Below, in pieces: positions 6,838-29,449 of a DNA stretch of 64,000 nt. The DNA is from Escherichia phage CMSTMSU, in the sequence record MH494197.1; one strand, 5' to 3'. Within the stretch, counting starts at the first letter, position 1, and the number at the start of each line of letters is the position of its first letter. Under the pieces are notes generated by a model. It made no database searches, was not told where the DNA came from, and was given only the letters and a program-made list of their open reading frames with translations. A program made the position numbers and the translations under genes.

Positions 6838-6838
6838 A

Positions 6839-7226: not shown

Positions 7227-7236
7227 ATTGGCCTCT

Positions 7237-9207: not shown

Positions 9208-9393
9208 TTAGATTGCTATCAGTTTCAGTACTTCAATATATGTGCGGTACTCTGCTTTAATTAAATTTGTACACACTGTAAGGGAATTTCTTTGTATAAG
9301 TTTATTGCCGCTTTTATACGCATTTCTCCACACATAGAGATGAGATCTTTCAGGCATAGATAGTTTATTTGTATAGTACTCAAATGTATTCAT
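9208..9393 (-). CDS. small-ORF array member (61 aa)
   Basis: Track ORF MNTFEYYTNKLSMPERSHL...; similar broken copy at about 8990. Confidence 0.45.
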   Translation of the reverse strand: MNTFEYYTNKLSMPERSHLYVWRNAYKSGNKLIQRNSLTVCTNLIKAEYRTYIEVLKLIAI

Positions 9394-9995
9394 ATATTAC
9401 CTCAAATAGAGATTAGTTTAAGTACTTCTCTGTATGTGTACTTTTCGTTTTGTGCATCTCTTGTGCTTGTATATAGGTATCCTCGACGATATTTGTTGCT
9501 CCCGTTCTTGTAGTTGAATTCGAACTTATTGTAGATGAATCTATCGCCGCTGTAATTTACTTAAGTACAATTCAATGCTCATAGTATTCTCTTTACATAT
9601 CAATAAGTTTCAGTACTGCTCTGTACGTGTACTTAGTTGTTAGTGCTTCTTTATAGCAATACAGAAGTAATGTTGTTTGTCTCTTATACTACCGCGTTTG
9701 TAGTACCATACATTGGAGTTGTGGGTGTACTTGTCCCTGTCGGATAGATTTTGGTAATAGTATAATATATGATTCATGGTAATGTAATTAGCCTTATTAT
9801 GTTAAAGTACTCGGTCCCCGTACACCTTGTAGAATATTATCAACTACATTTTCTTGGTGCAGGATTAATACATTCGGTGCGGTTCTTTTAAGGTTTTTAA
9901 AGTACTGTATTCTTGTTTAAGGATGAACTGTACATCTTTAGGGAGAATATCTAAGTAGTACTGGTGTATGTTCATAGTTTTCATATAGTACTCTT

Positions 9996-10181
9996 TTAGA
10001 ACTTAAAGATGAGGTTCATGATAGATAAGTACTTAGTTTCAGGAAATTGATGTTCTATTGCATAACGTGTCTCCAGTCTGAAGTCAAATTTATAAAAGGG
10101 ACTATTCATATCCATAGGTTCATTGGGAAATGAATCTCTGTATTGTTTGTGCAGCTTACTACAGTAGAATTCTTTATACAT
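9996..10181 (-). CDS. small-ORF array member (61 aa)
   Basis: Track ORF MYKEFYCSKLHKQYR... Confidence 0.45.
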   Translation of the reverse strand: MYKEFYCSKLHKQYRDSFPNEPMDMNSPFYKFDFRLETRYAIEHQFPETKYLSIMNLIFKF

Positions 10182-10182
10182 A

Positions 10183-10395
10183 TTAGTGCTCGATTAAAAG
10201 GGTTAGGATGTAATAGTATTGCATACTTTCTACCCCTTGTACAGCATTTCTTATTTTATTATTCCTGTACGAGTTCAAGAGTTTAGGACAATGTTTGAAG
10301 TTTATATAATTATTTTGTGTATACAGTAGGCTTTCTCGTAGACCTTTTGTTGGTAGTGCATCGATGTAGTACTGTTCAATGTTCATAGTGTTCAT
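10183..10395 (-). CDS. small-ORF array member, first unit (70 aa)
   Basis: Track ORF MNTMNIEQYYIDALPTKG...; abuts 9996..10181. Confidence 0.4.
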   Translation of the reverse strand: MNTMNIEQYYIDALPTKGLRESLLYTQNNYINFKHCPKLLNSYRNNKIRNAVQGVESMQYYYILTLLIEH

Positions 10396-10719
10396 AGAGC
10401 TACCAGTACTAAGATTTTTGATAATTGTTTGTTTCTATCCCGCAGATGTTGTTGTGTAAAATGCTCACTACAAGGGTATCAAGTGCATTGTTCAGCATAA
10501 GGTTACATCCAGTACTGTTATATTTTTTAGCTCAATTAGCCACGAACAATCCGCGAGAAATTTCCCGTACTCTAGTTCATTTAGCGTATTAATGTAGTAC
10601 TTAAGTGCATTTGTCATGTACAGTTCTCCTTATATTCCTTCTATAGTACATCAGTACTGAAAGGTTGTCAAGGGTTTTCTTTTTGGGGTAAATATGATAT
10701 AATGAATAAAGGAGGAAAT

Positions 10720-11866
10720 ATGTTACCTTTTGTAAGAATGGTTAAGTACGGGAATATTGCACCAGTACCGAAAAAATAAAGAAAGTTATAGCAGGATATG
10801 ATAATTTATATGTACTATATGGTGATGGTTCGCTATATGGTTGTGGAATCAATAACTATCAACAGTTAAATATTGATGGAACTGCTACACAAAATAATTG
10901 GGTACTAATTACCAATGGTGTTAGTAATGCATGGGCTGGTGGATACAATATTTTATATTTGAAAGAAGATAAATTTATAATGCACGGAACTAATGTCTCA
11001 TTAGGTTTAGGAAATACTACAATTCCATTAGGTGGAGTAGATGTAACTTCTTCATTCCCAGATATCTCTAATATTAAAATGATATCCATTGGTTTTGATT
11101 CAATGCACTATGTTAGTGCTGATGGTACAACTGTATATGGAAGAGGTATGAACACAAATGGTTCTGTTGGTTCAGGTAGTACTTACTCACAGAGTACTTT
11201 CACTTCAGTACTGAATAATGGAACTAATCAGGTTATTGATATATTTGGTAACGTTAATAATACAGTGCTTCTAACATCGAATGGTGAGCTTCGAGCATGT
11301 GGGACAAGTGCTTATGGTTCTATAGGAAATGAAACTGGTAAGTGGACATCGTTTGGTTTAAAATTATCTGGCACTAAAATAATGGGTGGTAATGGGTATA
11401 GTACGCTTGCATATACAAATTCGGGAATGTACCACTCAGGGTGGCAGTTAAATGGGGAACTAGGAAATGGTTTAGATACTAACGTACAGGTATATCCATT
11501 TCAATTTAACTCTAAAACGATAGATAGCAAGATAGATAAAATTGCCAAATCATCATCTGGGTCATATGTTAACATGTACTCAACAACAGAAGGAAAGATA
11601 TATACGACAGGTTCGTTTGGTAAAACGGGTCAACTACTGCATTGAATTTGTTCACCAATACATTAACACTTATAAATTACAATCCAGATACCGCCTCGTT
11701 GTATACGTGCACAAACTTCAGTGTTGTGTATGATGGTAATGAAACTATTGCTGTAAGTGGTAGTCCTACATATGTACCGAGGGCGTTGCCGCTAATAGAT
11801 GGACTACAATTCCATTACCCAAGTAATACTATGCCAGTACTTGATGCTGGCTTTTCTTTTGATTAA
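10720..11866 (+). CDS. leader-tagged RCC1-like repeat protein F1 (frame breaks)
   Basis: AAGGAGG then ATG; N-terminus MLPFVRMVKYGN; stop after 19 codons at an A-run (10766-10772), one extra A restores a reading colinear with paralogue 24753..25907; body = track ORFs 10959..11645 and 11642..11866. Confidence 0.7.
11833..11860 (+). terminator. intrinsic terminator between F1 and F2
   Basis: Hairpin GCCAGTA-CTTGA-TGCTGGC followed by TTTTCTTTT; same element recurs after most array genes. Confidence 0.6.
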
Positions 11867-11893: not shown

Positions 11894-13017
11894 ATGTTAC
11901 CTTTTGTTAGAATGTTTGATTATGGGAATATAATCGAAGTTAATAATATAAAGAAAAGTGTTGTTAGTTACACTCTTGAAATGTTTCTAATGCAAGATGG
12001 CACTGTATATGCACACGGTGAAGATTCAAACTATAATGCGGGTTTAAGTACACAGTTTGTATCGTTAGGAGCAGTTCAACAAATCACAACTGAAGTTGAT
12101 GACTTATGGTTAGGATCGTTTTCCGTTGTTATTAAAGGTGATAAAATATATGGTTCAGGTTCAACATATGCATTCACGAATTCTAATACTTTCCAACAAG
12201 GATATACTGACTGGGCTGTGTATTTCACTGGTATAGATGTTACCCAAATTAAAAAATGTTATGTGGTTATACAGCATTTATATTAATGAAAGACGGAACA
12301 CTTTATGGAAGAGGATGGAATCGAAGTGGTACATTAGGTTTAGGACATAAAAATTATGTTTCAGCGTGGACTGTACTTGACACTAATGTGGATAATATAT
12401 TTGGCGGTTACCTTGGCGATACATTGTTTAAGATTAAAAACGATGGAACTGTATATGGTTCAGGTTCAAATAACAGCTTTCAAGTTAAAGCAACATCGGG
12501 TGATGCAACCACATTTGTTCCGTTGTTTGATGATATATCTTATGATATAAAATGCAGTTTTGTTTCTGGTGTTGGTTTTGTAATGATAACATCTGATAAT
12601 AAAATATATGCAACTGGAACTACTTTTGCTGGTAGTGGTGCACATAGTAAAGTTTTTGATGTTGGTTTTACTATAGGTGATATGAGTAATATATATCATC
12701 CTGATTCGTTGGACTATTCGACTAGTGTTGTATTTTTAATTAATGCAGATACAAACAAACTAATAGCAACTGGGCATACCCATTTACGGAAGTAGTTCAA
12801 GTTCCTTCCATATTTTACAGCATTTCAAGAATTCAATTTTACATCGTTCAATTCGAATACACGATATAGTGGGTCTTTATACTGGAATACATTTTACGAA
12901 GGTAATAATGTATGGATGAATGGATATAATCCTGAAAATACGGGTGGAAAGAATTTCTCATTGTGTTCAATACCGTTAGATACTATTATTACTAAGCAAA
13001 TTGATTTACCTTTTTGA
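11894..13017 (+). CDS. leader-tagged RCC1-like repeat protein F2 (frame breaks)
   Basis: Track ORFs 11894..12286 and 12256..12795 plus tail; N-terminus MLPFVRMFDYGN; C-terminus ...TKQIDLPF matches ...FTKIDLPK of F7. Confidence 0.7.
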
Positions 13018-13087: not shown

Positions 13088-14273
13088 ATGTTACCTTTTG
13101 CAAGAATGGTTAAGTACGGGAATAAACAGCCTATTCCTGAACCAGTTGAGTTCACTGATGTTTTACAGCAACATTATACTAATGCTATGTATCTACATAA
13201 GCCCACGAATACACTATACGGTTATGGTGGTAATAACTTGAGCCAATTAGGTCTAGGGAATCAATCGACAGTTTCTACTTTTACAGTACTGGCAACGCAC
13301 TGTGCAGCCTTTTGGTTAGGCGTTCATGGCTCATTGATGATTGACTTGGATAATAGAATATATTTCACAGGGAATACAGTAGCATTCCCCGATTATGGAG
13401 ATGCAACTCCAGTTAATGGTTATTTTAGAACATGGACTGATGTTACTGCCGCATTTGACAAAATAAATGTACACGCTAATTTAATCAAGAGTGTACATAT
13501 AGGTGAAAGTACTAGAATATTACTACACGATGGAAGAGTAGTTGTTTGTGGTAAAATGCAAATGCCGAATGTGGAACAGGTAACCAAAATCCCATACCAG
13601 TACTAACAGTTGTTACTGGTATGGGTGAAGTTCTCAATTGGCGTGTTCATTACAGGGTACGCACTATCTCAAAACAAATAAAGAAGCATGGTTTTGTGGT
13701 AAGGATAACTTTGGTGAAAGTGGTGCTGGGACTAGCTCATACGTTTTACTAATAAGTTAATACGATCCAACGTCGATTATATAAGTGCTACTTATGATGT
13801 TACGGTGGTTCACTGCCGGTAGGGTGTACTGGAGTGGTAGAAACAATTCTGGACAAGCTGGGAATGGTACTACTTCAACCACAAACCAATTAACTACAGT
13901 TCAGAATTCACAGGTTATAGTGAATATTAGTGATGGTTTCCTGTGTCCTAGTAATATGGGTAACTCAACAATTGGTGCACCTATGGCTCAATACCCATCA
14001 TATGTCAGAGTGCAGGCATCAATACATATGGTCAAGAAGGGACGGAAATACAACAGTAATTACTTCGTGGGGGCGTTTTCTTTAAGTGCGATACAGGGTG
14101 GATATGACAATGTTCTTATGGCATCCAAAGACTGGTCCAGAACAATAATTATAACTAAAGATTATAAATTATATGCATGTGGGGGCTTTAACGGTTCAGG
14201 TGGTAACTTACCGGATGGTACTTCCGTAATTAAAACATTAACATTAATGCCAACGCAGTTATGGCAATCATAG
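13088..14273 (+). CDS. leader-tagged RCC1-like repeat protein F3 (frame breaks)
   Basis: Track ORFs 13088..13606 and 13785..14273; N-terminus MLPFARMVKYGN; repeats of type YGxGxNxxGQLG. Confidence 0.7.
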
Positions 14274-14282
14274 GAGAAAATC

Positions 14283-15404
14283 ATGTTACCTTTTGTTAGA
14301 ATGTTTGATTATGGAAATGAAGCACCTGATCCTAGTTCGGGATTTCGAATAATAAGTACAGGAGACGCATTACTATTAATTACTAAGAGTGGTGATTTGT
14401 GGGTGCGTGGTTATAACCGTTATGGCAAGTTAGGTATAGGTAATAACACCACTACCTATGTACTTGATTGGACGAAGGTTAGAAGTGATGTAAAGTTTGC
14501 GTGTGGTAGTGGATTGGTAACAGTTATCTTTACTAAGGGTAATCGCATATTGTACTGTGGTGACAAATGGTTTGAAACGGGTGGTGTTGGTAGTGCACAG
14601 ATTTTCACATGGACAGATGTTACGCACCAATTTGGGGCAGTAGATTTGAGTACAGTAAGGGATATGAAAATGTCTTATTACACGATTGGATTATTGACTA
14701 CTAATAATCAATTATACGCTAAGGGATATGATAATAACCTATCATTTGGTGGGGTTAGTAATAAGGCGACTGCTGTGTTTATTGCGAATAATGTACAAGA
14801 GTTGTATACGAGTTTAGTTAGTACAATCTACGTTGATACAAGTGGTATATTACATCGTTGTGGCATGAGTGATAACGGTTCGTTGGGTAATAATGTTAAT
14901 TTAACTTCGTATCTAAGTTATTCACAGACTGGTATGACGATTAAGGACATTGGAATGATGACTACGAACACTGGGTTATTATATACTGATTCTAGTGCAC
15001 GCACGAGATATTTTATTGCTGGACAGAACTTGAATAAACAGATGGGTAATGCGGCGGCTGCGAGTGCCATTACGAGTACTTACACAGAGCTTTCTGGTAG
15101 TGTTGATAAGTTTTCTTCTTTATGGGCGAATGATGGGATATTGATGACATTTGCTGTGGGTAAGAACACTAATCAGTTATTTTATGCTGGGATGAATACT
15201 TTTCATGCGAGTGGTGGTGTATCTTCATATGCGGATACATATGAGTTAGTCCCGATGGTGTTTAATGACATACAGGAAGTGTTATGTGCACAGCGTTTAT
15301 CGGTGGTACATGATTCTACGAAGTGGTATTACTGTGGTGATGCTAATTCAATGTATGGTTTACCGGACGTAAGTACTTTTACTGAGTTACCGTTGCCCTT
15401 TTAA
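14283..15404 (+). CDS. leader-tagged RCC1-like repeat protein F4 (intact, 373 aa)
   Basis: Uninterrupted track ORF; N-terminus MLPFVRMFDYGN; GGAG upstream; about seven repeats of (D/N)GxhYxxGxNxxGxLG; starts 9 nt after F3 stop with no terminator. Confidence 0.85.
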   Translation: MLPFVRMFDYGNEAPDPSSGFRIISTGDALLLITKSGDLWVRGYNRYGKLGIGNNTTTYVLDWTKVRSDVKFACGSGLVTVIFTKGNRILYCGDKWFETGGVGSAQIFTWTDVTHQFGAVDLSTVRDMKMSYYTIGLLTTNNQLYAKGYDNNLSFGGVSNKATAVFIANNVQELYTSLVSTIYVDTSGILHRCGMSDNGSLGNNVNLTSYLSYSQTGMTIKDIGMMTTNTGLLYTDSSARTRYFIAGQNLNKQMGNAAAASAITSTYTELSGSVDKFSSLWANDGILMTFAVGKNTNQLFYAGMNTFHASGGVSSYADTYELVPMVFNDIQEVLCAQRLSVVHDSTKWYYCGDANSMYGLPDVSTFTELPLPF

Positions 15405-15476: not shown

Positions 15477-16653
15477 ATGTTACCTTTTGTTAGAATGTTT
15501 GATTATGGGAACGTCGTTGAGCGACCTGTGGGTACACGTTATACCTGTAGTGACTATAGTGCGACTTATAGTTTAATAAAGGATGGTGTGTTATATGTAT
15601 CTGGGATGAATAACTATTATCAGTTAGGTAATAACACTAACGTAACACGTTACAACGAGTGGTTAAAAGTTCCAGAGACTGATAGTGTTAAGTTTTGTAG
15701 TACTGGTTATAGTCAGACAATGTATATTACTAACAATGGGAGGATAATGATAGCTGGTGAAGATCCTACTTCCAGTGCGACGGCGGTAAGTGTTAAGGTA
15801 TGGACTGATATAACTTCTAGATTTAGTGCAGTTGATACAAAGAAGATTGTTTATATTTCAATAGAACGCTTTGGTGTAATGATGATCATGCAAGATGGTT
15901 CAGTATGGGCGTGTGGAGTTGATAATACTGGTTGGAGTGGGCAGGAAGTAAAACTGTTGGTTTCTTTACTTTCAGACAAATATACACCGGAAGTGCAGGA
16001 AGTGCAGTTGCTGGTACTGCTGGTACTGGTACTGCGAGAATTCTGTTAGCTAATGGAACAATCTTGTCCGCTGGTACTAATACATATCATCAATGTAATG
16101 CTAGTACTGATCCGGCTGTTCTAACATTCACTGAATCATTCCACGGGTTGATCCTTCATTGATATATCAAATCAAGATGTGTAATAACAACTGTATTATA
16201 TTTTGAGTGATAAGAGATATTACGGTACTGGCTGGGAAGTTTTGGTGCATTGGGTGATGGTGATATTACGGGTTCGAATAATAAATTCTATGCAGGTACA
16301 TTGTCAGTTGCTCCTAAAACATGCGTGCTTATATGTCGTATCTATGTAGTTCTTCTGGGGATTCTAGTATGTACATAGGCGATGATAATTTCATATACAC
16401 CTGCGGTTATCGTGGGAGGAACTTAATAAATGCCACTACAGATATTGGTACGTTCACGAAATGCATTCAAAGTGCACAAGGATACAAGAATGGACTTATA
16501 TATAGTGGGAATTATTGTGCTGTAGTTTTTGATCCAGATTTGGGTTCAGGAATGTCATATGCGGTTTCATCACCAAAATTGAATGCACCAGCACCACAGG
16601 CGAGTGTTCCAACATTGGGTATGAGTTCGTTACAAGCTATTATTTTACCATAA
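15477..16653 (+). CDS. leader-tagged RCC1-like repeat protein F5 (frame breaks)
   Basis: Track ORFs 15477..16049, 15932..16162, 16321..16653; N-terminus MLPFVRMFDYGN; variant promoter TATATAAT and GGAG. Confidence 0.65.
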
Positions 16654-16736
16654 CATTATACCAGTACTGAAATATGTGCTGGTATTTTTTTAAATACATT
16701 ATAATTATTATATGGAGATTTTAGTTATGTTACCTT

Positions 16737-17851
16737 TTGTAAGAATGTTTGATTATGGGAATACAGTGGCTGCTCCCACTGGTATAAAGGATTTCAAGCA
16801 AATGGAAGCCACTGTATGGCACTAACATATAGTGGTGAGATGTGGGCTTATGGTACAAGTACAAGTGGATCAATGGGAACCGGATTCACGGTGGGTGCTG
16901 CTGATAAGGGTTGGTACAAGTCTAACATTAGTAATGTTAAATCATTCAGTTCTAATATGCAGACTAGCACAGTGGCTTTGACAAATGATGATAGAGTGCT
17001 AGTTTGTGGCTCAACTAGATTTGACAAATTCAGTACTCCAGATATTGCATCATCTAACCTTGATTGGTTGGATGTTACTGATCATATTCCACAGGAAGTT
17101 ATTGATGCTGGGATGAAGCAAGTTATTAACCACGTATATTATGTTGCCATTTTACTGAAAACAATCTATTATATAGTGTGGCATTATCTTTGGGTAATAC
17201 TAGTACTATAATAGATAGAACATGGAGAAGAAATACATTTGGTGATATACAAGTTGAACGTGTTGTTTCGTTGACACAAACCCCAAGTGGTCCTTTGTGT
17301 ATAGTTCAAGATGCAGACGGATACCAGTATGGTATTGGATATAATGGTAATAAGATTATTGATAATACTTCCACTAATTCATATTCTGTATATACCAAAA
17401 TGGGTACACTTCCTTACAATGAATTTGCCATATCGAATAGCGGGAAATTCAGTTCAGCGGTATTATCAGATGGGAGAAGTGTTTATAGTGGTACATTTCC
17501 AAAGTCATTCAATAATAGTTTTGGTTCATTTTGAAAGTTGGTGCGGTATCAGATACTGTGTTTGGTTTAGATGCAAAAATATGCGTGGTCAATATGGTCA
17601 AAATCAATTACCAATTGCGTCGGCTGATAACAATGCAAGTAATGGCGTTGTGAACCTTCGTAATGTTCCAGCGGGAACACAAACGAAAGACATTCGATTT
17701 ATATGCGGAAATGATGTAAAGAACGTTTATATCATATACACAAATGAAGACGGCATTAGCTCATTTTATGGATTGGGACCAAACTTTGATCAAAATTCCT
17801 CAACATATGCACAATTCGTCAAAGTGGATTTGCGGGGCATTATCAAATTAA
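16737..17851 (+). CDS. leader-tagged RCC1-like repeat protein F6 (frame breaks, 3' end approximate)
   Basis: ATG at 16737 after terminator 16661..16690; N-terminus MLPFVRMFDYGN then early stop; body = track ORFs 16816..17211, 17178..17534 and 5' part of 17311..18324. Confidence 0.6.
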
Positions 17852-17861
17852 GGAGAGAAAT

Positions 17862-18960
17862 ATGTTACCTTTTGTTAGATTGTTTGATTATGGGAATATC
17901 ACACGGTCCTAAAAATATAATTAAAGTTGGTGCTTCTACACAGGGTCAATTCTTATTGACAGATTCACATGATTTATATTACATAGGTAGAAATCAAGGT
18001 GGTGAATCTGGAAATGGAAATACCAACACAGTATCCTCATGGATATTAGTAAGTACAGATGTTTCTAATTTTTTCGTGGGTGATCGTACACTTGTTATTA
18101 TTAAAAATGATAATACGATATGGTCATCAGGTCAAACGTACTGGTTCACATCTTCCACAACTACTTCTTACAGTACTGTATTAGTTGATAGAACCAGTTG
18201 GTTTACCAATGCCATACCAGTAAGTGAAATTGCTGATATAGTATGTTCGTATGGTTTAATATTTGTACTTAGCACTAGTTCAGTACTCTATGGTGCAGGG
18301 CTAATGGATATCGTGGTGCTTTAGGTATTGGTTCATCATCAATTTACACATTAACTCAATGTGCTACTAATGTGCGTAAAGTAATGACGAATGCAAATGA
18401 CAGTATGTATATTACATTAGATAATAAGTTATATAGTTCTGGGTGGAATGACCGTGGATTACATGGCACAGGAACAGAACACAAGTTAACATTTGGGGAC
18501 TGCGTAGTTCTGGTGTAATAGATGCAGCTATTGGTGGACATACACTCAATTACTATAATGGTACATCATATTTCACATGTGGTACAACTCCAAACTTTCT
18601 TAGTTCAGATTCAACTACATTCAAAGCAGTTCCTGTAAGTACTTTACCTAATAATTCACCTTTGTTTATGACAAATTCAGAGGCAACAAGCACGGCTACG
18701 CAAATTATATTAACTAGTGCATATCAGAAAGGTATTGGAAACCGTGGTTTGGGATTAAACAATTCTCAAACGGTGCTATCTATAGTGCTGCTAATTTACA
18801 ATTACCTGTAGAAGTTAGTGAGATTAGTGATGTTGCTTTTAGTGACGGATTAACATCATTATTAACCAAAGACGGAATGTATATAGTACTGGATCGTATT
18901 ACGCCATTCCGTGCAAGTGCAGATGTTGCAGTCTTTACTAAAATTGATTTACCAAAATAA
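17862..18960 (+). CDS. leader-tagged RCC1-like repeat protein F7 (frame breaks)
   Basis: AGGAGAGAAAT then ATG; N-terminus MLPFVRLFDYGN then stop; body = 3' part of track ORF 17311..18324 plus downstream frames ending ...FTKIDLPK. Confidence 0.6.
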
Positions 18961-18966
18961 CATAAT

Positions 18967-18993
18967 GCCAGTACTTGATACTGGCTTTTCTTT
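18967..18993 (+). terminator. intrinsic terminator after F7
   Basis: GCCAGTA-CTTGA-TACTGGC hairpin plus TTTTCTTTGG. Confidence 0.6.
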
Positions 18994-19000
18994 GGTTAAA

Positions 19001-19023
19001 TATAGTATAATGAATAAAGGAGG
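19001..19023 (+). promoter_or_regulatory. conserved array promoter/RBS module (-10 TATAAT at 19006-19011, AAGGAGG at 19017-19023)
   Basis: Block TTAAATATAGTATAATGAATAAAGGAGG nearly identical upstream of 12 of the 17 array genes; no convincing -35 hexamer. Confidence 0.5.
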
Positions 19024-19028
19024 GAATT

Positions 19029-20198
19029 ATGTTACCTTTTGCAAGAATGGTTAAGTACGGGAATATTGCACCTGTTCGCCCTGAAATAAAGAAATTGGAT
19101 GGTAGTCAATTACATGTCGGATTACTATATAGTACTGGTAATATGTATATGCGTGGTTCTGGTTCGAACTACAAGTTAGGTACAGGTGATGCTAGTGATG
19201 TATTAGATGGTTGGGTACATGTACCCTATGAAGTTGATGATTTTTGGGCGTGTGTGTCCGGTACATTAATAAAGACTAAAGACAATAAGTTATATTGTGC
19301 AGGACTATACATGGGTGGATATTTTGGTGCTAGTGGTTCATATGTTAACTGGACTGAAGTAACTTCATTATTTGTGGGTATTAACGTCTCACAAATAAAG
19401 AATATAGAATTTACATCAGCGAGTACTTCCGGTAGTACACTAATATTGATGTTAGATGGTAGTTTATATGGGTTCGGTATGAACAGTAGGTCGGAGTTAG
19501 GTGTTAATAACAAAGTCGTATCTCCTATTCTTATAGATACTGGGGTAAGTTCAATAGGAGCACATAAATTAGGTGGTTCATCGTTCCATTATATAAAAGA
19601 CGGTAAGTACTACAGATGTGGGACCGCGATTGGTAGTAATATAGGAAGTTCTTCTTTAACTACATTTACTGAATTGAGTATTGCTGATAATGTTATATCT
19701 ATGCAAATATTATTTGACAACGTACAGTTATTATGTTTTGGTAGTACTGGATATAGTATCTATATGGCTGGTTCTAATGATTATGGTGGAAGAGGTGTTG
19801 GTGGTAGTACTGTTTACACTACATTCAGGAAAATAGATCTTACTGGATTTGGTGTTGTTCCCAGTGAAATACTATTTGAAAATGCAGGGAATGGTTATGT
19901 TAATATATCAACTGATAGTACTGGCATATATACATGTGGTGGTGGTGCTGGTGTTAATGGTTTAGGTAGACCGAGTAATGTTATATCAAGTTCACAGTTG
20001 GGTTTGATTGAGTTCAGTACAGGATTATACCCAGCAAATATAAGTCGTGTATTTTCACAGAGTTCATCTTCTGTTATATATTGTATAGTTAATAATGAAT
20101 TGTACTGGGCTGGGAGTAATTCATATTTTACTGATCAAACTACAAATACTGGTACACAATTTTCATTTATTAAGATGAAGGATATGCCTTCTGCTTAG
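19029..20198 (+). CDS. leader-tagged RCC1-like repeat protein F8 (intact, 389 aa)
   Basis: Uninterrupted track ORF; N-terminus MLPFARMVKYGN; Gly/Ser/Thr/Asn-rich repeats. Confidence 0.85.
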   Translation: MLPFARMVKYGNIAPVRPEIKKLDGSQLHVGLLYSTGNMYMRGSGSNYKLGTGDASDVLDGWVHVPYEVDDFWACVSGTLIKTKDNKLYCAGLYMGGYFGASGSYVNWTEVTSLFVGINVSQIKNIEFTSASTSGSTLILMLDGSLYGFGMNSRSELGVNNKVVSPILIDTGVSSIGAHKLGGSSFHYIKDGKYYRCGTAIGSNIGSSSLTTFTELSIADNVISMQILFDNVQLLCFGSTGYSIYMAGSNDYGGRGVGGSTVYTTFRKIDLTGFGVVPSEILFENAGNGYVNISTDSTGIYTCGGGAGVNGLGRPSNVISSSQLGLIEFSTGLYPANISRVFSQSSSSVIYCIVNNELYWAGSNSYFTDQTTNTGTQFSFIKMKDMPSA

Positions 20199-20205
20199 AT
20201 TTTAT

Positions 20206-20235
20206 GCCAGTACTCTGTACTGGCATTTCTTTATT
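20206..20235 (+). terminator. intrinsic terminator after F8
   Basis: GCCAGTAC-TCT-GTACTGGC hairpin plus ATTTCTTTATT. Confidence 0.6.
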
Positions 20236-20265
20236 AAATATAGTATAATGAATAAAGGAGGAAAT

Positions 20266-21470
20266 ATGTTACCTTTTGTAAGAATGTTTGATTATGGGAA
20301 TGAAGCACCTGTGCCAGTTGGTATAAAGATGGTAAAAGTTTTACAGAATAATGTGTTTATTTTATTAGAAGACGGAAGATTATATGGCAGAGGGCATAAT
20401 TTTTACTATCAATTAGGTACTGGTAGTAGTTCTCCTACTATAGTTGAAGAGTGGGTTTTATGTTTAACTGATGTAAAGGAATTTTGGACTACTGGTGATA
20501 CACAAGGAATATTAGTACGTAAAAATGATGGCACATGGTGGAGTACTGGTACTCAAATCTATCGTGGTGTTAATACTACTTATCGTGTATGGACAGAAAT
20601 ACTTGGTATTTTTAATGATGTGAATGACACATATAGTAAAATAGTTATAGGAAGCGGCGTTACATTATTATTAACAATAGATAATAAATTATATAAGATG
20701 GGTGACAATAACAACGGTGAAGTTTTACTGGGGCTGTTGGTCAAAGAGTATCAGTACTGACATTGACACCAGAAGTTAATGTTAAAGATATTGGTGTAAC
20801 CGCGAATAATGCTTCATTTGTATTATACAATGATGGAACATTAAAGTACAGTGGGAATAAATCTAGTATTGGTTCGACTGGTACGACTAGTACAACTCCC
20901 ACATTGACTACTGTTACTACTGGAGTATTACAGATAAATTCGGAAAATGCATATAGTGCTAATTACGTATTAAAGAGTGATGGGCTATATGTATTCGGTT
21001 CACAAATAGATGGACAGTTGGGTGATGGCACTGATGGCACTATTAACAGTCTTAGAACAATCACAAAGATACCAGCTTCTAGTATTCCTAGTACTGCTAT
21101 TGATTACATAGGTGGTTCTAATTTTGAAGCACACGTTAGAGCAGGTGGTATATGGTATTTCGCTGGGCGTGGAAACGCTTCTGGAGATGGAATAACGAAC
21201 TCTAATGTTATTAAAACATGGCGTGCATGTACTAATATAACTGAACCAGTTCCATATGATAAAATGACACATGGTTATATGATAACATTCATGTTAAAAA
21301 CGGTGAATTATATGGTTCAGGGAATGGTGGTAGAACTGCTGGTATGGGTACAATTCCGTATGAAGAAGAAAATGCCGGAAATACAGGATTATTTAAAAAA
21401 TAGTTACACCGAGTTAAAATTAAAAGCCAGTACTCTGTACTGGCATTTCTTTGTATTAAATATAGTATAA
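20266..21470 (+). CDS. leader-tagged RCC1-like repeat protein F9 (frame break)
   Basis: Track ORF 20248..20760 trimmed to MLPFVRMFDYGN Met, plus track ORF 20763..21470. Confidence 0.65.
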
Positions 21471-21488
21471 TGAATAAAGGAGGGAATT

Positions 21489-22595
21489 ATGTTACCTTTT
21501 GCAAGAATGGTTAAGTACGGGAATATTGCACCAGTTCCGGTAGTTCCTACAATAAAAGATTTTAAGATTGGATTTTCACATGAAGTGTTATTGGACAGTG
21601 CAGGTGATGTATGGGGTATTGGATACAATACAGATGGGCAGTTGGCTTTTTGGATGCAAACACCAATTCATTAGGTGCGTGGTCTAAGATATATACTGAT
21701 GTTCGATTAATTGGAGTTACTGCTAGATATACAGTGGTAGTTACTAATAATAATAGAATACTATACGCAGGAAATAACTTAATTTCTAGTACTACCACTC
21801 TTGGGTGGACCGATATAACTACCAGTATGGGTCCGGTTGCGGTGGATAGCATCGATGCATTATATTGTACAGAGGGTATGATGCATATTAAAACTTCAGA
21901 TGGTTCTTTATATGCATATGGTCGTAACATGAACGCAAACAGTGGTGTTACTGGTGGTGTTATTAGTGTTGCAACTAAGGTTAATTTGCCTTCTGCTGTA
22001 AATGACATGCGATATACGTTTAGTTATGGTTCAGTACTATGTAGATTGGATACGACTTCTATATACGCATGGGGACGAAACATAAATGGTGAATTAGGTC
22101 AGGGTAATGCAACAGCCATTGTTACTCCAAAACTATTGTCTGGTTCTTCTATTGCAATGGGTACTTCGTATAATGCTACTGCAATTGTTTCTGGTTCTGC
22201 ATTGTTGCTTACATGTGGTGGACAAAACAGTGGGCAGTTAGGTAATGGTATTACAACTGATGGTAATGTATACACCTTTGGTGTCAGGACATACCAGCGA
22301 TCTTAATACAATAAGAAGTCCAGTGGATTGCAGTACAACGTACACCTCTGCATTTATGAGTCCAGATGGTATATATTACACTGGTGCTAACCGAAGTATG
22401 TTTGGTGGTATTAGTGGTGGTGCTACCGTTGGAATATATACTAAATGTAGTGATTTACCAATAACATATTCTAATATAATTCAGTGGAGTAGTGGTACTA
22501 TTGGTGGTGCTATATGTAGTAGTACAGAGTTATACCAATGTGGTATAGGTAGATACATTGCTGGTGATGGTGCGAGCACAACCGTATGGATTTAG
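21489..22595 (+). CDS. leader-tagged RCC1-like repeat protein F10 (frame breaks)
   Basis: Track ORFs 21489..21674, 21611..22306, 22245..22595; N-terminus MLPFARMVKYGN; break near a T-run. Confidence 0.65.
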
Positions 22596-22695: not shown

Positions 22696-23884
22696 ATGTT
22701 ACCTTTTGTTAGAATGTTTGATTATGGGAATATCACACCTGAACCTCTTCAAATTAAGAAAATAATACCAACTGATACTGAGGTTGTTGTACTTTATACC
22801 GACGGTCAACTATACGCACGAGGCAGTAATAGTTATGGGAAGTTTGGTAGAGGAAATAATAATGCAGTAAGGTCGTGGACATTAATTAGAGAAAATGTCA
22901 AAGATTGCTGGATGACACAAGGAACTTTGTTAGTTCAAGATAAGGACTTAAATTATTTTTATTGTGGATATGGTAGTCATATTGGTTTAGAAACTAGTAC
23001 TACATCATTTTTAAGTTATAACCAATATATTGAAAATTTGTACACACAAAGTTCAGGTACTTCAATTAAACAGATGTATGCAGGTACTACTTGGTTTACT
23101 TTCTTAATGGATAATAATACAATATGGAGTACTGGTTGGAGTGGGGCTAGACAATTCGCTGATGGTACTGGTAGTACTCAACAAATAACAGATGGATCAT
23201 TTGTAAAAGCTGTCACGCCTAATGTTGATATTGCACGAATACAGTCAACAAATAGCTGTGTAATGTTTTATGATACACAAAATAATTTATATATTGGTGG
23301 TAGTACATCAGGTATAAGTACTACTGATACATGGACTCCATACAATCAATATACTTTATATCAGCCAAGTACAACATATACAAAAACATTACAATATGTT
23401 GTATGTACAATTGGTGCAGTCAGTGCTTTAGTGGAGAATCCAAGTACAGGAGCACGTCAGTTCCTAGTGGGTGGGAACGCCAATAATGGGGCATGGGGTA
23501 ATAACACTACGTCTAGTACAGCACGAGCAGTATTAGGAAATAATAGTACAACCTTACCACCGTACTTTGTATTCAATTCATACTGGATACCCAGCACAAT
23601 CTAGTATACTAGTTACGAGTTCTGGTGTATATGCAACAGGTTTAAATGCGAGTAGTTATGCTGGTTCATTGGGTGTTGGTTCTAATGTTACCATTGGTAA
23701 ATTTACTGCATGTCCATTGCCGTCAGAAATAACATATTCTATGTATGATAAAATAAAAATATATCGAGGGTCGTTACGTACTTTCCTAACTGCTGATATG
23801 AAAAATATATATTCAACCGGAACTTATGATGATGGTGGTCCTAGTACAAATAGATATGTACTGGATACACCTAGACAATTGTAA
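22696..23884 (+). CDS. leader-tagged RCC1-like repeat protein F11 (frame break)
   Basis: Track ORFs 22696..23604 and 23567..23884; N-terminus MLPFVRMFDYGN. Confidence 0.7.
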
Positions 23885-23948: not shown

Positions 23949-24683
23949 ATGTTACCTTTTGCTAGAATGGTTAAGTACGGGAATAAAATTGAATATAAGC
24001 CACATGGTGAACAATTAATCACGACAATAGGAACAACACAATTTACAGTTCCTGCTGGCGTTACCGAAATATCAGTATGTGTTATTTCGCCGGTGGTCAA
24101 CGTGGTGCTGGCGGCGGCTTATCGTGGCGTAATAATATTCCGGTTTCTGGTGGTGAGTACTTAAGTGTTTCTCTTACATCCCAACACTACTACAGCAGTT
24201 GAAAACGGTTTATATCGTGGAACTGAAAAACTATGTGTTAGCTTCACTGGTGCATATACGGTTGGTGGACTAGGTGGAAAAGCTGCTAACGCTATTAATG
24301 ATGGTGGTGGTAATGGTGGCAACACTGGTTTAAGTGGTGGTGCAGTCATTGGTGGTGGTGCTGGTGGCTACACTGGTAAAGGTGGTAACGGAAATGCAAT
24401 CACTGGTGAAAATGGTGCTGGGGGCGGCGGTGGTGGTGGTGCATTCTATAATACCTCGTTCATTGGTACGGGTGGTGGTACTGGTATCATTGTTCAAGGT
24501 GCTAATGGTATTGGTGGTAGCTACGATGGTTCATATAATGGTGGTGCTGGTAGTGGTGGTGCTGGTAATAGGTATGGTGGTGGTGGTAGTATATGGGATA
24601 ATTCTTCTTATACGGCGGCTGGTGGTGGTGCTGTGCGAATAATATGGGGACGTGGGAGATATTATCCTAATAATTCAGTCTAA
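23949..24683 (+). CDS. leader-tagged glycine-rich domain protein F12 (frame break)
   Basis: Track ORF 23826..24164 trimmed to MLPFARMVKYGN Met, plus track ORF 24165..24683 (GGGNGGNTGLSGG..., GAGGGGGGGAF); alternative frame across the break gives FAGGQRGAGGGLSWRN. Confidence 0.65.
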
Positions 24684-24752: not shown

Positions 24753-25907
24753 ATGTTACCTTTTGTTAGAATGTTTGATTACGGGAATATTGCACCTGAA
24801 GCTCCAAAGATAAAGAAAGTACTGTGCGGTCTTGATAATTTGTACGTCCTCTATGACGATGGCTCACTTTATGGTTGTGGGGTTAATTCGTATTTTCAGT
24901 TAAACGTTACAAATACAGCAACAAGAAATACTTGGATATTAATTTCAGAAGGTGTTACTGATGCATGGGCTGGGGCGTACAATATTCTTTATATCAAGGG
25001 TGAAGAATTCATAATGCATGGAGTTACCACACAATTAGGCACAGGAAATACTATGATTCCGTTGGGTGGTTTGAATGTTACTTCTTCATTTCCACATATA
25101 TCTAATATTAAAATGATATCAATCGGTGCAGATACAATGCACTACGTTGATGCTAGTGGTTCGATTGTTTATGGTAGAGGCATGAATGGTAACTATTCAC
25201 TCGGTGGTGGGTATTCCACGGCTCAGAGTACTTTTGTTTCAGTTATTAATACCGGAGCTAATACAGTCCTTGATATATTGGGTACACAGAATAACACATT
25301 AATATTAACATCAAATGGTGAACTTCTCGGTTGTGGGAGTAGTGAGTATGGCTCACTTGGCGTAAGTCAAGGACAGTATACTACACTAGTAAGCAGGTTA
25401 ACCAGTGTTAAACTGTTTGGTGGTAACAGTACTGGTACTCTTGCTTATTCAGCCAGCAATATATACAACGCAGGTTGGCAGTATGTTGGTCAACTTGGTA
25501 ACGGTATTACAACGAACACACTAGTATATCCATTTGCATTTAACTCCACTACTATTGATAGTAACATACATAAAATATCAAAATCAAGTACATCTTCACG
25601 TGTTAATATGTACGCAACAACCGAAGGAAAGATATATAGTACTGGTGAATTTGGTAGAAATGGTTCTGGTGGTAGTTTGAGTAGATTCACCAATACACTA
25701 ACTTTAGATAATTACAACCCAGAAAAATCAGCATTATACACATGTGCACATTTTAGTATAGTATTTGATGGTAATAATCAAATTTATGCTTGTGGTTCTT
25801 TTTGTATGTGCGTTCTATTACCACGAACTCATGGTCTGCAATTACAATGCCGAAATGATACTATAAAACTATGCCAGTACTTGATGCTGGCATTTCTTTT
25901 GTATTAA
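24753..25907 (+). CDS. leader-tagged RCC1-like repeat protein F13 (intact, ~384 aa)
   Basis: Track ORF 24735..25907 trimmed to MLPFVRMFDYGN Met; colinear paralogue of F1. Confidence 0.8.
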   Translation: MLPFVRMFDYGNIAPEAPKIKKVLCGLDNLYVLYDDGSLYGCGVNSYFQLNVTNTATRNTWILISEGVTDAWAGAYNILYIKGEEFIMHGVTTQLGTGNTMIPLGGLNVTSSFPHISNIKMISIGADTMHYVDASGSIVYGRGMNGNYSLGGGYSTAQSTFVSVINTGANTVLDILGTQNNTLILTSNGELLGCGSSEYGSLGVSQGQYTTLVSRLTSVKLFGGNSTGTLAYSASNIYNAGWQYVGQLGNGITTNTLVYPFAFNSTTIDSNIHKISKSSTSSRVNMYATTEGKIYSTGEFGRNGSGGSLSRFTNTLTLDNYNPEKSALYTCAHFSIVFDGNNQIYACGSFCMCVLLPRTHGLQLQCRNDTIKLCQYLMLAFLLY

Positions 25908-25936: not shown

Positions 25937-27070
25937 ATGTTACCTTTTGCAAGAATGGTTAAGTACGGAAATAAAAGACCATCTAATAATATCAAAAGAT
26001 TTCATGTACAACCAATAACAGTGTTTTGGTGCTCACCGAAAGTGGAGATTTGTATGGTTTTGGATTCAATTCAGGTGGTGAACTTGGCACTGGTGCAAAA
26101 CTAGTGTTACTTCAGTTATTCAAATTGACACTGGAGTTGATGATGTATGGGGTGGTAGTCTATGTGCAATGTACAGAAAAGGCGATGAATTCTTTGGCAG
26201 CGGGACGGTTCTTATTATGGTTCAAGTGCTGTTAACTCAACCACATTTGTAAATGTAACACACATATTCCAAGATATAGATATTCTTAATATTAAGAAAA
26301 TTAAAATGACAACAGGTTTGTTTATATTAATGCAAAACGGCAACTTATATGGATGTGGGGTAAACACCAATTGTCAATTTGGTACTGGTGAGGCAGTGAA
26401 TTTTCGTTATCCTATAGCTACATTAACACAAACGGATGTTGTTGATTTTGATATTTTAGGAAACTCTAGTATAATATTAAAGACCGATGGGTACATGTAC
26501 AGTGCGGGTGATAATGGTCGTGGACAACTTGGTAGTTCTACTGCAACCACACTTCTGGTATATACACAAATTAGTAAATTTCCAAACGTAACCAATTTGG
26601 ATCTGTTCGGACACTCACAAGTTACTTCATTATTCAAAGATAGTGATGGTAAAACGTGGTTGAGTGGTAATAGTTATGGTATTGATTACCCAGTAGTAGC
26701 TACAACATTATTCAGTAAAGAAGCACCAGTACCTGAAGGTACATTTCGTTTTATCAACACAAGGGCAGGGTCAAATACACCAATAATATGTACACCCACT
26801 GGGTATTATGTTGCTGGTACTAACCCTTATGGTGCATATGGTATAGGTACGAATGTAACTCTGACAACATTCACAAGAATGGATTCTATGGATAGATACA
26901 TATCTGATTATAATAATGTTCCTGTTTTCGATGGATGTTTCTATGGGACATATTTTGCAGTTGGGGAACGTCTGTTTGGTGCAGGTAATGGTAATACTGG
27001 TAATGTTCCGGATATACTGGATCACAGCGTAACTATGTGGAAATTAATTATAAAAATAATTAAACCTTAA
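25937..27070 (+). CDS. leader-tagged RCC1-like repeat protein F14 (frame breaks)
   Basis: ATG at 25937 behind AAGGAGG; N-terminus MLPFARMVKYGN; body = track ORFs 26026..26235 and 26306..27070. Confidence 0.65.
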
Positions 27071-27138: not shown

Positions 27139-28308
27139 ATGTTACCTTTTGCTAGAATGGTTAAGTACGGGAATACTATACCCAAACCCGCTGGTGTGAA
27201 GAAAATTAGTACTTCCATTAATCACGTTGGGATGTTATTCGATAATGGAAATTTATATCTACGTGGGGTGGTGGTGAGTATAAGTTAGGAAATGACAGTA
27301 CTGGATTCGTACAGAATGGTTGGGTTAAGTGTCCATATAGCGTTGCTGATGTTTGGTGCTTCACTTACGCGACAATTATACTTACTACAAGTGGTGAATT
27401 ATACTTAGCTGGACAATTGGGTTATGTTGGTGTAGTTGCAGCGAGCGTACGGATGGACTAATATTACATCTAATTTATCCTCAATACCTGCACTTAGTAC
27501 TATACAAAACATAGCTTATACTGAGACTACAATTTACAATGGTGCTATATTAATTTTGTTAAGCAACGGGGACTTATATGGTATAGGTCGTAATGGTGGT
27601 GGTGTATTAGGCGTTTCTGGAATCCAATCAACTGCACTTAAGATTGACACAGGTGTTACTTTAATTGCTGGCACAGACCGTTCAGCGGCGTTACATTATG
27701 TGAAAAATGGTCAATACTACAGATGTGGGAATAATTCTCGCTACAACCTAGGAACAAGCTCTTCTGTTTTATCTACATTTACGGTAAGTACAGATATCAC
27801 AGGAACCGTACTGGGATTGCATGTACTACAAATGCGACTTCAGTACTGACATCATATAATGGTACTATTAGAGTGTATAGTGCTGGGACGAATACCGATT
27901 ATACGTTAGGTATTGGTTATGGAGATACCAGTATAATAATGAGTCCATTTAGTGCTACACCTCCAATTTATGGTATTGTACCAGATGCGGCATCACTGAA
28001 TAATTCTTGTATTAATTCTAATATGATTGCGATGACACAGGGTGGTAAATTGTATACATGTGGTAATGGTGTTGCTCTTGGTAGAGAAATCACTGCATCG
28101 ACACCTAGAACGGCGTACTATCCAGTACTATTTGAGGATTCAAATACTGCACTTGATGTTAATGCTTTTGCAGTGCAGGGGGTTCCGGTGTGTTATACGC
28201 ATTAGTGGGGGCAAATGAGGTTTACTGGTGTGGTAGTGGTTCTATGTTCCGGAACAGAGTGCAGGTACACAACAAGTTAAAATGAAGAAAATGATTTTAC
28301 CAGAATAG
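27139..28308 (+). CDS. leader-tagged RCC1-like repeat protein F15 (frame breaks)
   Basis: ATG at 27139; N-terminus MLPFARMVKYGN; body = track ORFs 27436..27849 and 27873..28205; upstream -10 is TATAAA. Confidence 0.6.
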
Positions 28309-28317: not shown

Positions 28318-29449
28318 ATGTTACCTTTTGCAAGAATGGTTAAGTACGGGAATATAAAAGTAAAGAGTACTATCCAAAAAGTTATCCTTGGTGGTGGTGG
28401 TCAATGTGTGGTAACATTACTCAGTGATGGTAGAGTGTATGGACGTGGATACAATACAACATATGGGTTGGGTACTGGTACAACAACATTCGTAAGTGAT
28501 TGGGTATTAATGGGCGATAATATTGTTGATATCCATTCAAATGGTGTTACTGGCACATTCCTTATTACCAAAGAAAATAGAATTTTGTATTCTGGTTTTG
28601 CGACACCAATCAATGGCACAACATCACATTATACACGTTTCACTGATTTAACATCAACTGTATTTGCTGCGGTGGATGTTAGTAATATTAAAACAATTAC
28701 GGGAAATGGTAATGTTACAATGGTTCTTTTGAATGATGGTTCACTTTATGGGAGTGCAAATACAGGGTTATAGGTAATGGTAGTAACGTTGCATTATCAA
28801 CACAAACATATGTGACTAATGATGTGCGTGATGTGAAAACATATCCATCAATGAACACTATAACAAAAATAATAATCAAATATTGGCTAGTGGTATTTTA
28901 TACCAAGGCGTGAACGGTACAAATTCATCAATAAACACGTCTTCATATACATTACTGTACACATTACCGAGTTCTGATTGTTTTCAATTTGCATTTGATA
29001 CATATACATTTGGATATGTTGACCCTAGTACTAACACTTCTTATATAAGAGGTATACCAATAAATGGTTCATTAGGTAATGGCGTTACTAATAATACAGC
29101 AGTTACAACATGGGTTACTAAAGTTTGGAATACACCAATTGATAGTTCTATACCTAATAAATCATATACAACTAACCATGTCTCCTTGTTCAATGATGGA
29201 AACTTATGGACAACTGGTGCATCTAGTGTCGGCTATTCCAATGGTACAAATAGCACAACAGCTAATACATGGACCAGTTCATCTAATTTACCATTCAACA
29301 CTAATAACATAACAGACTATGCTTTTGGTGGTAGTATTACTGTGGTGGTAATCGACTATAGGACTATGTACATACTAGCTAACAACGCCATTGCTGGTAC
29401 TGCTACGACAACTTATAAATTTGAGCCATATAATTCTCCACCAGTTTAA
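28318..29449 (+). CDS. leader-tagged RCC1-like repeat protein F16 (frame break)
   Basis: Track ORFs 28318..28773 and 28883..29449; N-terminus MLPFARMVKYGN; starts 10 nt after F15 stop behind GGAGG. Confidence 0.65.

Follow-up and report, generated by a model that had tools for sequence, protein, structure and literature searches.

A 12-residue N-terminal tag heading a 17-gene array of Escherichia phage CMSTMSU is probably a retained virion-docking peptide whose DNA also serves as a junction for cassette exchange

Seventeen genes of Escherichia phage CMSTMSU begin with nearly the same 36 nucleotides (nt) and diverge immediately afterwards, and the question raised by this locus is what keeps so short an element constant at the head of proteins that have otherwise drifted far apart. 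The DNA analysed here, called the window, is a stretch of 64,000 nt of sequence record MH494197.1, in which the array occupies 10.7-31.3 kb as 17 plus-strand cassettes spaced by about 1.2 kb. The window comes from an Asteriusvirus-type jumbo coliphage (the 121Q/PBECO4/phAPEC6 group), near to fEgEco12, WPEC3 and 121Q/phAPEC6. A megablast search with positions 18000-22000 had no matches outside Escherichia and Salmonella jumbo phages (347-384 kb), and the top matches reached 94-96% identity, yet covered just 33-60% of the query. A first-pass annotation had offered two alternative explanations for the constant 36 nt, hereafter the leader: selection for a short peptide that acts as a signal or in docking, and gene conversion that uses the leader as a recombination box. 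Our results support the two together rather than as alternatives. We assign a probability of about 0.7 to the reading that the leader encodes a retained virion-incorporation (docking) peptide, and the same to that peptide combined with recombinational homogenisation of its DNA. The array, its leaders (F1 to F17) and the genes of F8 and F12 lie as follows, with lengths in amino acids (aa).

10689-31322, plus strand: all 17 cassettes of the array; 3' end approximate, taken from the 374-aa orthologue fEgEco12 g580
10720-10755, plus strand: F1 leader, MLPFVRMVKYGN
11894-11929, plus strand: F2 leader, MLPFVRMFDYGN; body without counterpart in phAPEC6, fEgEco12 and WPEC3
13088-13123, plus strand: F3 leader, MLPFARMVKYGN
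14283-14318, plus strand: F4 leader, MLPFVRMFDYGN; without upstream promoter block; cassette junction relative to fEgEco12
15477-15512, plus strand: F5 leader, MLPFVRMFDYGN; variant promoter block
16727-16762, plus strand: F6 leader, MLPFVRMFDYGN; variant promoter block; cassette junction relative to fEgEco12 g591
17862-17897, plus strand: F7 leader, MLPFVRLFDYGN; without promoter block
19029-19064, plus strand: F8 leader, MLPFARMVKYGN; the copy named in the first-pass annotation
19029-20198, plus strand: F8 gene, intact, 389 aa; 12-aa tag, linker of about 7 aa, predicted seven-bladed RCC1-like beta-propeller
20266-20301, plus strand: F9 leader, MLPFVRMFDYGN
21489-21524, plus strand: F10 leader, MLPFARMVKYGN
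22696-22731, plus strand: F11 leader, MLPFVRMFDYGN
23949-24683, plus strand: F12 gene, glycine-rich non-propeller body (phrog_4474); leader MLPFARMVKYGN at 23949-23984
24753-24788, plus strand: F13 leader, MLPFVRMFDYGN; the phAPEC6 gp009 orthologue carries a VKY leader
25937-25972, plus strand: F14 leader, MLPFARMVKYGN
27139-27174, plus strand: F15 leader, MLPFARMVKYGN
28318-28353, plus strand: F16 leader, MLPFARMVKYGN; without promoter block
30206-30241, plus strand: F17 leader, MLPFVLLFDYGN; different promoter block

From F1 to F16 the leaders start 804-1253 nt apart; F17 starts 1888 nt after F16, and a minus-strand gene separates the two. Seven leaders read MLPFVRMFDYGN and, with the L-variants of F7 (VRLFD) and F17 (VLLFD), make nine of the FDY type; another seven read MLPFARMVKYGN (VKY type), and F1 alone reads MLPFVRMVKYGN, with V5 on a VKY background. 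This count of nine, seven and one agrees exactly with the earlier one. Searched with a degenerate 36-nt pattern allowing at most three mismatches, the window yields 16 copies, where 100 shuffles predict none, and the leader of F17 (MLPFVLLFDYGN at 30206, plus strand) is the 17th copy. Mean pairwise identity is 0.877 within the leader and falls to 0.36 in the next 36 nt and to 0.29-0.31 deeper in the genes, so that the sequence is already divergent right after the leader, as had been claimed; in the 30 nt upstream it is 0.50, and the full-length body proteins share 19-24% identity with one another. The supposed near absence of synonymous variation needs only a slight correction, since across the 17 leaders it is small but not nil (GTT/GTA, GCA/GCT, TAT/TAC, GGG/GGA, AAT/AAC and one TTC).

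The peptide is by no means peculiar to this phage. Its motif, M-[LI]-P-F-x-[RI]-[IM]-x-x-Y-G-N, is shared with jumbo phages of the Mimasvirus, Eneladusvirus and Munch-like groups and with uncultivated ones: the leaders of phAPEC6 read MLPF[AG]RM[VILM][KN]YGN, those of GAP32 read MLPFSRIIQYGN (gp001) and MLPFARIFRYGD (gp002), Salmonella phage Munch has 14 copies of MIPFxRIxxYGN, Pectobacterium phage CBB has 10 tagged genes, and further tagged genes are present in Yersinia phage fHe-Yen9-04, Xanthomonas phage XaC1, Serratia phage BF and two uncultivated jumbo phages of about 360 kb. A scan of IMG/VR with the degenerate DNA motif returned nine contigs only, eight of 348-378 kb and one of 109 kb, which comprise 121Q, BF, GAP32, CBB, four uncultivated genomes (355-371 kb) and the 109-kb fragment. 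In a set of 92 leaders drawn from 11 genomes, M1 and P3 never change, and F4 (89/92), Y10 (85/92), G11 (82/92) and N12 (84/92) rarely do; position 2 accepts L, I or F and position 7 accepts I or M, position 6 holds R in most copies (or I), and positions 5, 8 and 9 are free. The relatives show further variants at these free positions, such as G5, T5, MMN and LK. The two allelic forms of the first-pass annotation are therefore merely two variants at unconstrained positions and not functional classes. Likewise, the F1 leader does not have to be a recombinant hybrid, as had been suggested, because it differs from the VKY form by a single base (GCA to GTA) and is inherited in the same form in fEgEco12 (g594) and WPEC3.

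Munch and CBB use a range of synonymous codons for the conserved residues (CCA/CCG/CCT, AGG/AGA, ATA/ATT/ATC, TAT/TAC and every one of the four glycine codons), which indicates that selection acts on the peptide there. The genes of Munch are often translationally coupled and have no repeated intergenic block, and the peptide is kept. The motif is under peptide-level selection across genera, being kept in at least five jumbo-phage lineages. In a literature search of incomplete coverage we found no description of the shared N-terminus, and no described counterpart for a tag that is so short, extends across genera and is retained in the mature protein.

The bodies behind the tag are of at least four unrelated types, namely RCC1 propellers, Kelch propellers, ConA/LamG sandwiches and a glycine-rich protein, and the tag is the only feature common to them. 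They match PHROG families 4219, 4474, 6011, 3545 and 12615, and Laminin_G_3 sandwiches occur in several subfamilies; the Kelch-type tagged proteins are CBB_550, CBB_552, CBB_554 and a 305-aa protein of locus L024. In the window the bodies are RCC1-like propellers (PF25390, RCC1 repeats, phrog_4219), with matches to PF25390 and the RCC1 repeats that lie below the curated cut-off for most copies. The first-pass annotation was right that the same leader stands before a different domain in F12, whose glycine-rich body is not a propeller; a search of its orthologue against solved structures gave a best E value of 0.38, and a suspected likeness to the T-even gp38 adhesins could not be demonstrated by sequence. 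The tagged proteins are 220-400 aa long and near-neutral, with a median isoelectric point (pI) of 6.7 and net charges of -9 to +7. No toxin domains were found in the bodies, and no immunity genes in the array.

Structure prediction places the tag outside these folds. The AlphaFold2 model of F8 is a seven-bladed propeller that begins at residue 20 (mean predicted local distance difference test score, pLDDT, 81; predicted template modelling score 0.85), preceded by coil at residues 1-19 with a pLDDT of about 50 for residues 1-10. In the model of the LamG-type protein CBB_536, residues 1-19 lie outside the beta-sandwich, also with a pLDDT of about 50, and in the two models the tag itself is coil or low-confidence helix. 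Foldseek matches the F8 model best to the RCC1-like domains of UVR8, RPGR and HERC (E about 1e-21); over the range that includes RCC1 itself, E values are 1e-22 to 1e-14, template modelling scores about 0.7 and identities 13-20%, and a sequence search of solved structures with F8 found none at E <= 0.01.

Related bodies exist elsewhere without the tag. The phrog_6011 LamG-type body is untagged in Vequintavirinae of 145-150 kb, in PhiEaH1 and in PCH45, and the LamG-type homologue of the 150-kb Cronobacter phage PBES02 (locus 2995-3645) begins MNEMLMLGQAKAKAGLDIDF. For RCC1-like matches in Clostridioides, Bacillus and Brevibacillus phages the alignment begins no earlier than query residue 16-32, and according to the PHROG profiles the LamG, RCC1 and glycine-rich domains of other phages form the C-terminal parts of much longer proteins. 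The untagged phrog_6011 bodies suggest that the tag is specific to Rak2-like jumbo phages and was joined there to pre-existing domains.

What ties the tag to the virion is the published proteomes of relatives (phAPEC6, CBB and GAP32), not one of the window's own phage. Electrospray ionisation tandem mass spectrometry of phAPEC6 virions detected, among others, gp003, gp005, gp006, gp007, gp009, gp010, gp549 and gp551 (PMC7247149, Table 1), all of which bear the leader; 8 of the 11 annotated tagged proteins are thus in virions, against 62 of 551 proteins overall (hypergeometric P about 2e-6). Three tagged genes of phAPEC6 (locus positions 2434-3540, 6063-7250 and 7325-8056) are unannotated or in the wrong frame (gp004) and would therefore be undetectable in the published virion proteome search; gp002 is annotated with a false start upstream. 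The virion proteins of CBB include CBB_247, 536, 537, 548, 549, 551, 552 and 553 (PMC5259590, Table 4); 8 of the 10 tagged CBB proteins are among the 55 virion proteins (P about 2e-7), and tagged proteins make up five of the six that the CBB authors noted as absent from GAP32. By mass spectrometry (MS), GAP32 gp001 is a virion protein as well (PMC5259590).

These data also show what becomes of the tag. The CBB virion peptides R.LFEYANVIIPPNYK.V (residues 7-20 of CBB_536) and K.YANVIVEYATK.F (residues 10-20 of CBB_548) cover part of the leader, and at least tag residues 7-12 therefore stay on the mature protein. Retention was checked in CBB only, through its peptide table, and in this sole phage with data the reading of the leader as a processing site fails; removal of the T4 type is disfavoured by the same peptides. 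The CBB tags hold an LxE sequence (RLFEYAN, RLVEYAN) that was found uncut, as LFEYANVIIPPNYK spans the LxE site, and the Asteriusvirus leaders contain no E.

Taken together, we suggest that the leader encodes a short linear docking motif of 12 residues, by which a changing assortment of lectin-like late proteins would enter the virions of Rak2-like jumbo phages, probably through binding of the tag to a single common virion partner. Selection on a signal or docking peptide, one half of the first-pass interpretation, is thereby borne out by three kinds of observation: the motif is kept through synonymous change, it heads unrelated bodies, and its carriers are enriched in virions. The near-identity of the DNA would be a second, separate layer. 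The leader, usually with a terminator-promoter block, is the only homology between cassettes; it would be repeatedly overwritten through short-tract recombination or gene conversion, and the gain, loss and rearrangement of cassettes would take place at this junction.

Several observations weigh against this interpretation. The link between tag and virion is a correlation drawn from two published proteomes of relatives, and MS coverage of the tagged phAPEC6 proteins is low, at 1-5 peptides each (PMC7247149). Lectin-like late proteins could co-purify with virions or with membrane debris, and CBB 550 and 554 and phAPEC6 gp001, gp002 and gp550 are tagged and went undetected. Tag residues 1-6 were never seen by MS, which leaves partial N-terminal trimming possible. 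A LamG-type family is named 'virion structural protein' in some untagged phages, so these bodies might reach virions by another route. In addition, no conserved neighbour gene that could encode the docking partner was found across the genera compared. The minus-strand neighbour of the array was considered as that partner and rejected, since it is not kept across genera: the adjacent minus-strand gene encodes a DUF1190 lipoprotein in CBB and fHe-Yen9-04, an AAA-like protein in XaC1 and, in Asteriusvirus, a protein with no assigned function. A last difficulty concerns the DNA layer. TTA, CCT and AGA encode L2, P3 and R6 in every window leader that has these residues, and GGG is used in 15 of 17, while the share of TTA, CCT, AGA and GGG among the codons of their amino acids in the bodies is 48%, 33%, 37% and 12%, respectively. 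The first three codons are fixed in both Asteriusvirus lineages, so that homogenisation alone is no full explanation and a constraint at the nucleotide level is possible.

Where on the particle the tag would dock can be proposed only tentatively. We lean, at somewhat less than even odds, towards an exposed site, for example the fibres on capsid hexamers and tail rings of 121Q, phAPEC6 and CBB. Such fibres have no assigned protein in these phages (PMC5646251, PMC5259590), and those on the capsid and tail of CBB bear small terminal globules. An external site is favoured because the bodies match lectin-, tail- and structural-protein families by Pfam and PHROG, because the same domains are C-terminal in longer proteins of other phages, because the proteins are near-neutral, because fibres without an assigned protein are available, and because the LxE tags of CBB are uncut while the capsid of 121Q is apparently LxE-processed. 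As for this last point, the 121Q major capsid protein (locus 17646-18821) reads ...HRKVMLTE/SATSGATT at residue 43, and a cut at VMLTE/SATSG would fit T4-type LxE maturation and the reported change from 42.2 to 37 kDa, a weak indication. With similar reserve we speculate that the array is a self-diversifying display, in which the tag plugs dozens of binding modules non-covalently onto one site of the capsid or tail fibres. If so, each virion would carry a mixed repertoire, and the DNA of the tag would double as the crossover site.

Of the alternatives, the one that survives best, unlikely as we consider it, is capsid targeting of the T4 type, in which the tag would direct the proteins to the prohead scaffolding core and place them inside the head, perhaps in the inner body; they could then leave the head together with the DNA and serve, for instance, as a diversifying set against host defences like the T-even internal proteins. 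The capsid targeting sequence of IPI, IPII, IPIII and Alt in T-even phages is functionally the closest known system to the tag, being likewise an extreme N-terminal element of about 10-12 residues and the sole shared feature of diverse, fast-evolving virion proteins, and it thus provides a precedent for internal proteins that share only their targeting sequence (PMC3012670). 121Q and phAPEC6 have an inner body, for which the phAPEC6 authors proposed RCC1-like proteins (PMC7247149; PMC5646251). The genome of 121Q has T4 gp20-, gp21-, gp22- and gp23-like head genes, including a T4-like prohead core annotated as 121Q_601 and 121Q_602 (gp21 protease and gp22 scaffold), a module outside the window. 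The tag occupies the very N-terminus, and even close relatives differ strongly in repertoire.

However, the T4 targeting sequence is removed by the prohead protease at an (L/I)xE site, and the jumbo-phage tag is retained in mature CBB virions, with its LxE sites uncut even though the 121Q capsid weakly fits an LxE protease. The T4 internal proteins are small and basic, whereas the cargo here consists of near-neutral lectin-like folds of 220-400 aa. By inspection, the tag has no resemblance to the T4 sequence, which we take to be MKTYQEFIAE, and is unrelated to it. The lectin-, tail- and structural-protein character of the bodies and the C-terminal place of the same domains in much longer proteins of other phages also speak against a position inside the head. 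Repoila et al. (1994) are said to have described shuffling of the T-even internal-protein locus through conserved flanking cassettes.

A second alternative is that the tag has nothing to do with the virion and is a chaperone, degradation or release signal of soluble late proteins, the detection in particles being incidental and due to the stickiness of lectins. The low peptide counts in the virion proteomes would fit this, and so would the host membrane patch left on phAPEC6 baseplates in preparations. We nevertheless regard it as improbable, because the enrichment was obtained independently in two phages and two preparations (P about 1e-6 to 1e-7) and because the tag by inspection has no look of a Sec, Tat or lipoprotein signal, with 12 residues and neither a hydrophobic core nor a cysteine.

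The remaining alternatives concern the nucleotide sequence and are best weighed with the evidence for exchange among the arrays. Six window bodies have phAPEC6 orthologues at 85-97% nt identity, and the leader peptide differs in all six pairs; the body of F13 is 97% identical to that of phAPEC6 gp009 and the first 60 nt past the leader are 100% identical, yet the leader itself has 5 differences in 36 nt. Leaders with G5 stand on six phAPEC6 paralogues but are missing from the window, fEgEco12 and WPEC3, while FDY-type leaders stand on 8-9 paralogues in these three and are missing from phAPEC6. One uncultivated genome has MIPFARISKYGN at the head of RCC1 as well as LamG bodies, and the orthologous bodies of a related genome carry other leader variants. 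Such leader differences between orthologues show concerted evolution. The arrays are also mosaic, in that F2 lacks a counterpart in three relatives, F8 is absent from fEgEco12 and F3 differs in position from fEgEco12. Leader-bounded cassette swaps, which the first-pass annotation had recommended looking for in related genomes, are present: F4 and fEgEco12 g590, and F6 and g591, share their upstream sequence and are wholly unrelated after the leader. Leader replacement and junctions at the leader both suggest that the leader, usually together with the hairpin and promoter block, serves as the homology patch for exchange, and it is on these two grounds that the other half of the earlier interpretation, in which the leader is a recombination box for gene conversion, also stands.

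These results do not make the leader an element of DNA or RNA only. If the conserved first codons tuned ribosome loading on a very short 5' untranslated region, one would expect arrangements such as those seen in the array, where TATAAT stands 17 nt before the ATG, the untranslated region would be about 10-20 nt, the region is less structured than shuffled sequence (z +0.4 to +1.5) and the rare codon GGG is frequent in the leaders. This initiation or mRNA element is nonetheless very improbable, since F4, F7 and F16 lie within polycistronic units behind other upstream sequence and use the same codons, other genera change the codons and keep the peptide, no stable RNA structure was found in three leaders compared with shuffled ones, and the presence of one peptide on unrelated protein families would be left unexplained. 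Still harder to maintain is a pure DNA recombination box, in which the 36 nt would be kept as homology for cassette shuffling and the peptide would be functionless. The nucleotide homogeneity in Asteriusvirus does exceed what peptide constraint requires, and orthologues do show leader replacement with junctions at the leader, but this reading is largely refuted by Munch and CBB, where the peptide is kept across genera while codons vary, by Munch in particular, where it is kept without the repeated intergenic block, and by the in-frame, extreme N-terminal position in five protein families, for which a DNA box has no need. Finally, many beta-propellers close their ring with an N-terminal 'velcro' strand, and such a role in closing the last blade can be dismissed for the tag, because the F8 and CBB_536 models place it outside the fold (in F8 as low-confidence coil before residue 20) and because LamG sandwiches, Kelch propellers and the glycine-rich protein carry it too.

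A docking tag combined with exchangeable bodies has partial parallels in other systems. Tailspikes, tail fibres and tip adhesins (P22-like, T7 gp17, T2/S16 gp38) have a conserved N-terminal anchor and a variable receptor-binding part. The array resembles them in its constant N-terminal element, its exchangeable distal domains and recombination at the boundary, which was looked for and found; it differs in that their anchors are folded, of about 50-150 residues and usually trimeric, whereas the tag, ten times shorter, has 12 residues outside the fold and the array proteins are compact globular domains, not fibres. Polymorphic toxin and contact-dependent inhibition cassette arrays have a conserved N-terminal delivery part and variable C-termini that recombine at a short junction. 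As in those tandem arrays, a short conserved junction would be both delivery tag and swapping homology, with the difference that the present array lacks toxin domains and immunity genes and each cassette is a complete gene. The predicted seven-bladed propeller of F8 is like the RCC1-like domains of eukaryotes, yet at 13-20% identity and with near-neutral proteins there is no support for chromatin binding or DNA condensation; the names 'regulator of chromosome condensation' and 'DNA condensation protein' refer to a fold and not to a function.

If the docking interpretation is correct, the largest paralogous family of virion proteins in the 121Q/PBECO4/GAP32/CBB group would gain a function; databases now call its members 'DNA condensation proteins' on fold alone. 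A single targeting rule would link five seemingly unrelated PHROG families, and the array proteins would become concrete candidates for the inner body or for the 'hairs' on capsid and tail. The same 36 nt would combine peptide-level selection with concerted evolution, the tag being also the recombination junction of a hypervariable array, and a 12-residue peptide could be predicted to load or display foreign proteins on jumbo-phage particles.

The leader is usually accompanied by conserved intergenic elements, of which those around F8, and the one related motif outside the array, are given here.

18967-18985, plus strand: terminator-like hairpin GCCAGTACTTGATACTGGC followed by a T run; closes the unit upstream of F8 and recurs between most units
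18997-19011, plus strand: promoter-like motif TAAATATAGTATAAT, a TAAATA core followed by a perfect TATAAT
19019-19023, plus strand: GGAGG, Shine-Dalgarno sequence of F8
62180-63373, plus strand: sole promoter motif outside the array (TAAATACGTTATAAT), before a frameshift-split gene (62217-62489 and 62549-63373)

By sequence, most cassettes are complete genes with a promoter-like motif and a terminator-like hairpin of their own. The motif TAAATAnnnTATAAT precedes 14 array genes and has one other occurrence in the window, at 62180, before a gene that matches phrog_10468, 'virion structural protein'; within the window the array thus shares its promoter motif only with a virion structural gene. 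ATAAATA, to which the TAAATA core of the array is similar, is found upstream of the head and tail genes of 121Q and was proposed as the late promoter in CBB. The promoter-leader block, which the first-pass annotation had treated as a unit, holds in part: block and leader usually occur together, but no block precedes F4, F7 and F16, and a different one precedes F5, F6 and F17. The leader is therefore not simply a part of such a unit, and the use of the same codons in F4, F7 and F16 suggests that it alone suffices as the homologous segment. The hairpins between cassettes (18967-18985, 20204-20226 and equivalents) are conserved at the DNA level as GCCAGTACT-loop-AGTACTGGC, and their 3' arm, CTGGCA or CTGGCT, lies about 18 nt before TATAAT, where a sigma-70 scan at F9 finds a weak -35 element.

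Only F4, F8 and F13 read full-length in the window, while the orthologous genes are intact in the closest relatives, at 369-397 aa; the orthologue table does not include BF17 or the full 121Q array locus. When 15 window units were aligned to orthologues of 91-99% identity, 58 of 59 indels were deletions of 1-3 nt in the window, 25 of the 59 lying in homopolymers of at least four bases and about 10 at CCWGG, the Dcm motif. Examples are an A7 run at about 10770 and CCAGG contexts. F12 too is split in the window by sequencing deletions and has intact orthologues of 244-245 aa in fEgEco12 (g586), 121Q and phAPEC6. The apparent truncations, which concern 13 of the 17 array genes, are thus best taken as long-read basecalling errors at homopolymers and Dcm-methylated sites. 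A pseudogenised array was considered and rejected on the grounds that nearly all indels are window deletions, mostly in homopolymers or CCWGG, and that the relatives' genes are intact. The deletions at CCWGG hint that the phage DNA is cytosine-methylated there.

The minus-strand gene between F16 and F17 (29480-29857, phrog_34359) corresponds to fEgEco12 g581 (locus positions 21312-21962) and is kept in fEgEco12, WPEC3, BF17, 121Q and phAPEC6, with no counterpart next to the arrays of other genera. To the left of the array, the minus strand at about 8455-10617 holds a second set of tandem paralogues, which extends leftwards and consists of small open reading frames of about 40-70 aa with the N-termini MNTFEYYFNKL..., MNTFEYYTNKL..., MNTMNIEQYYIDALP... 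and MKTMNIHQYYLDILP....

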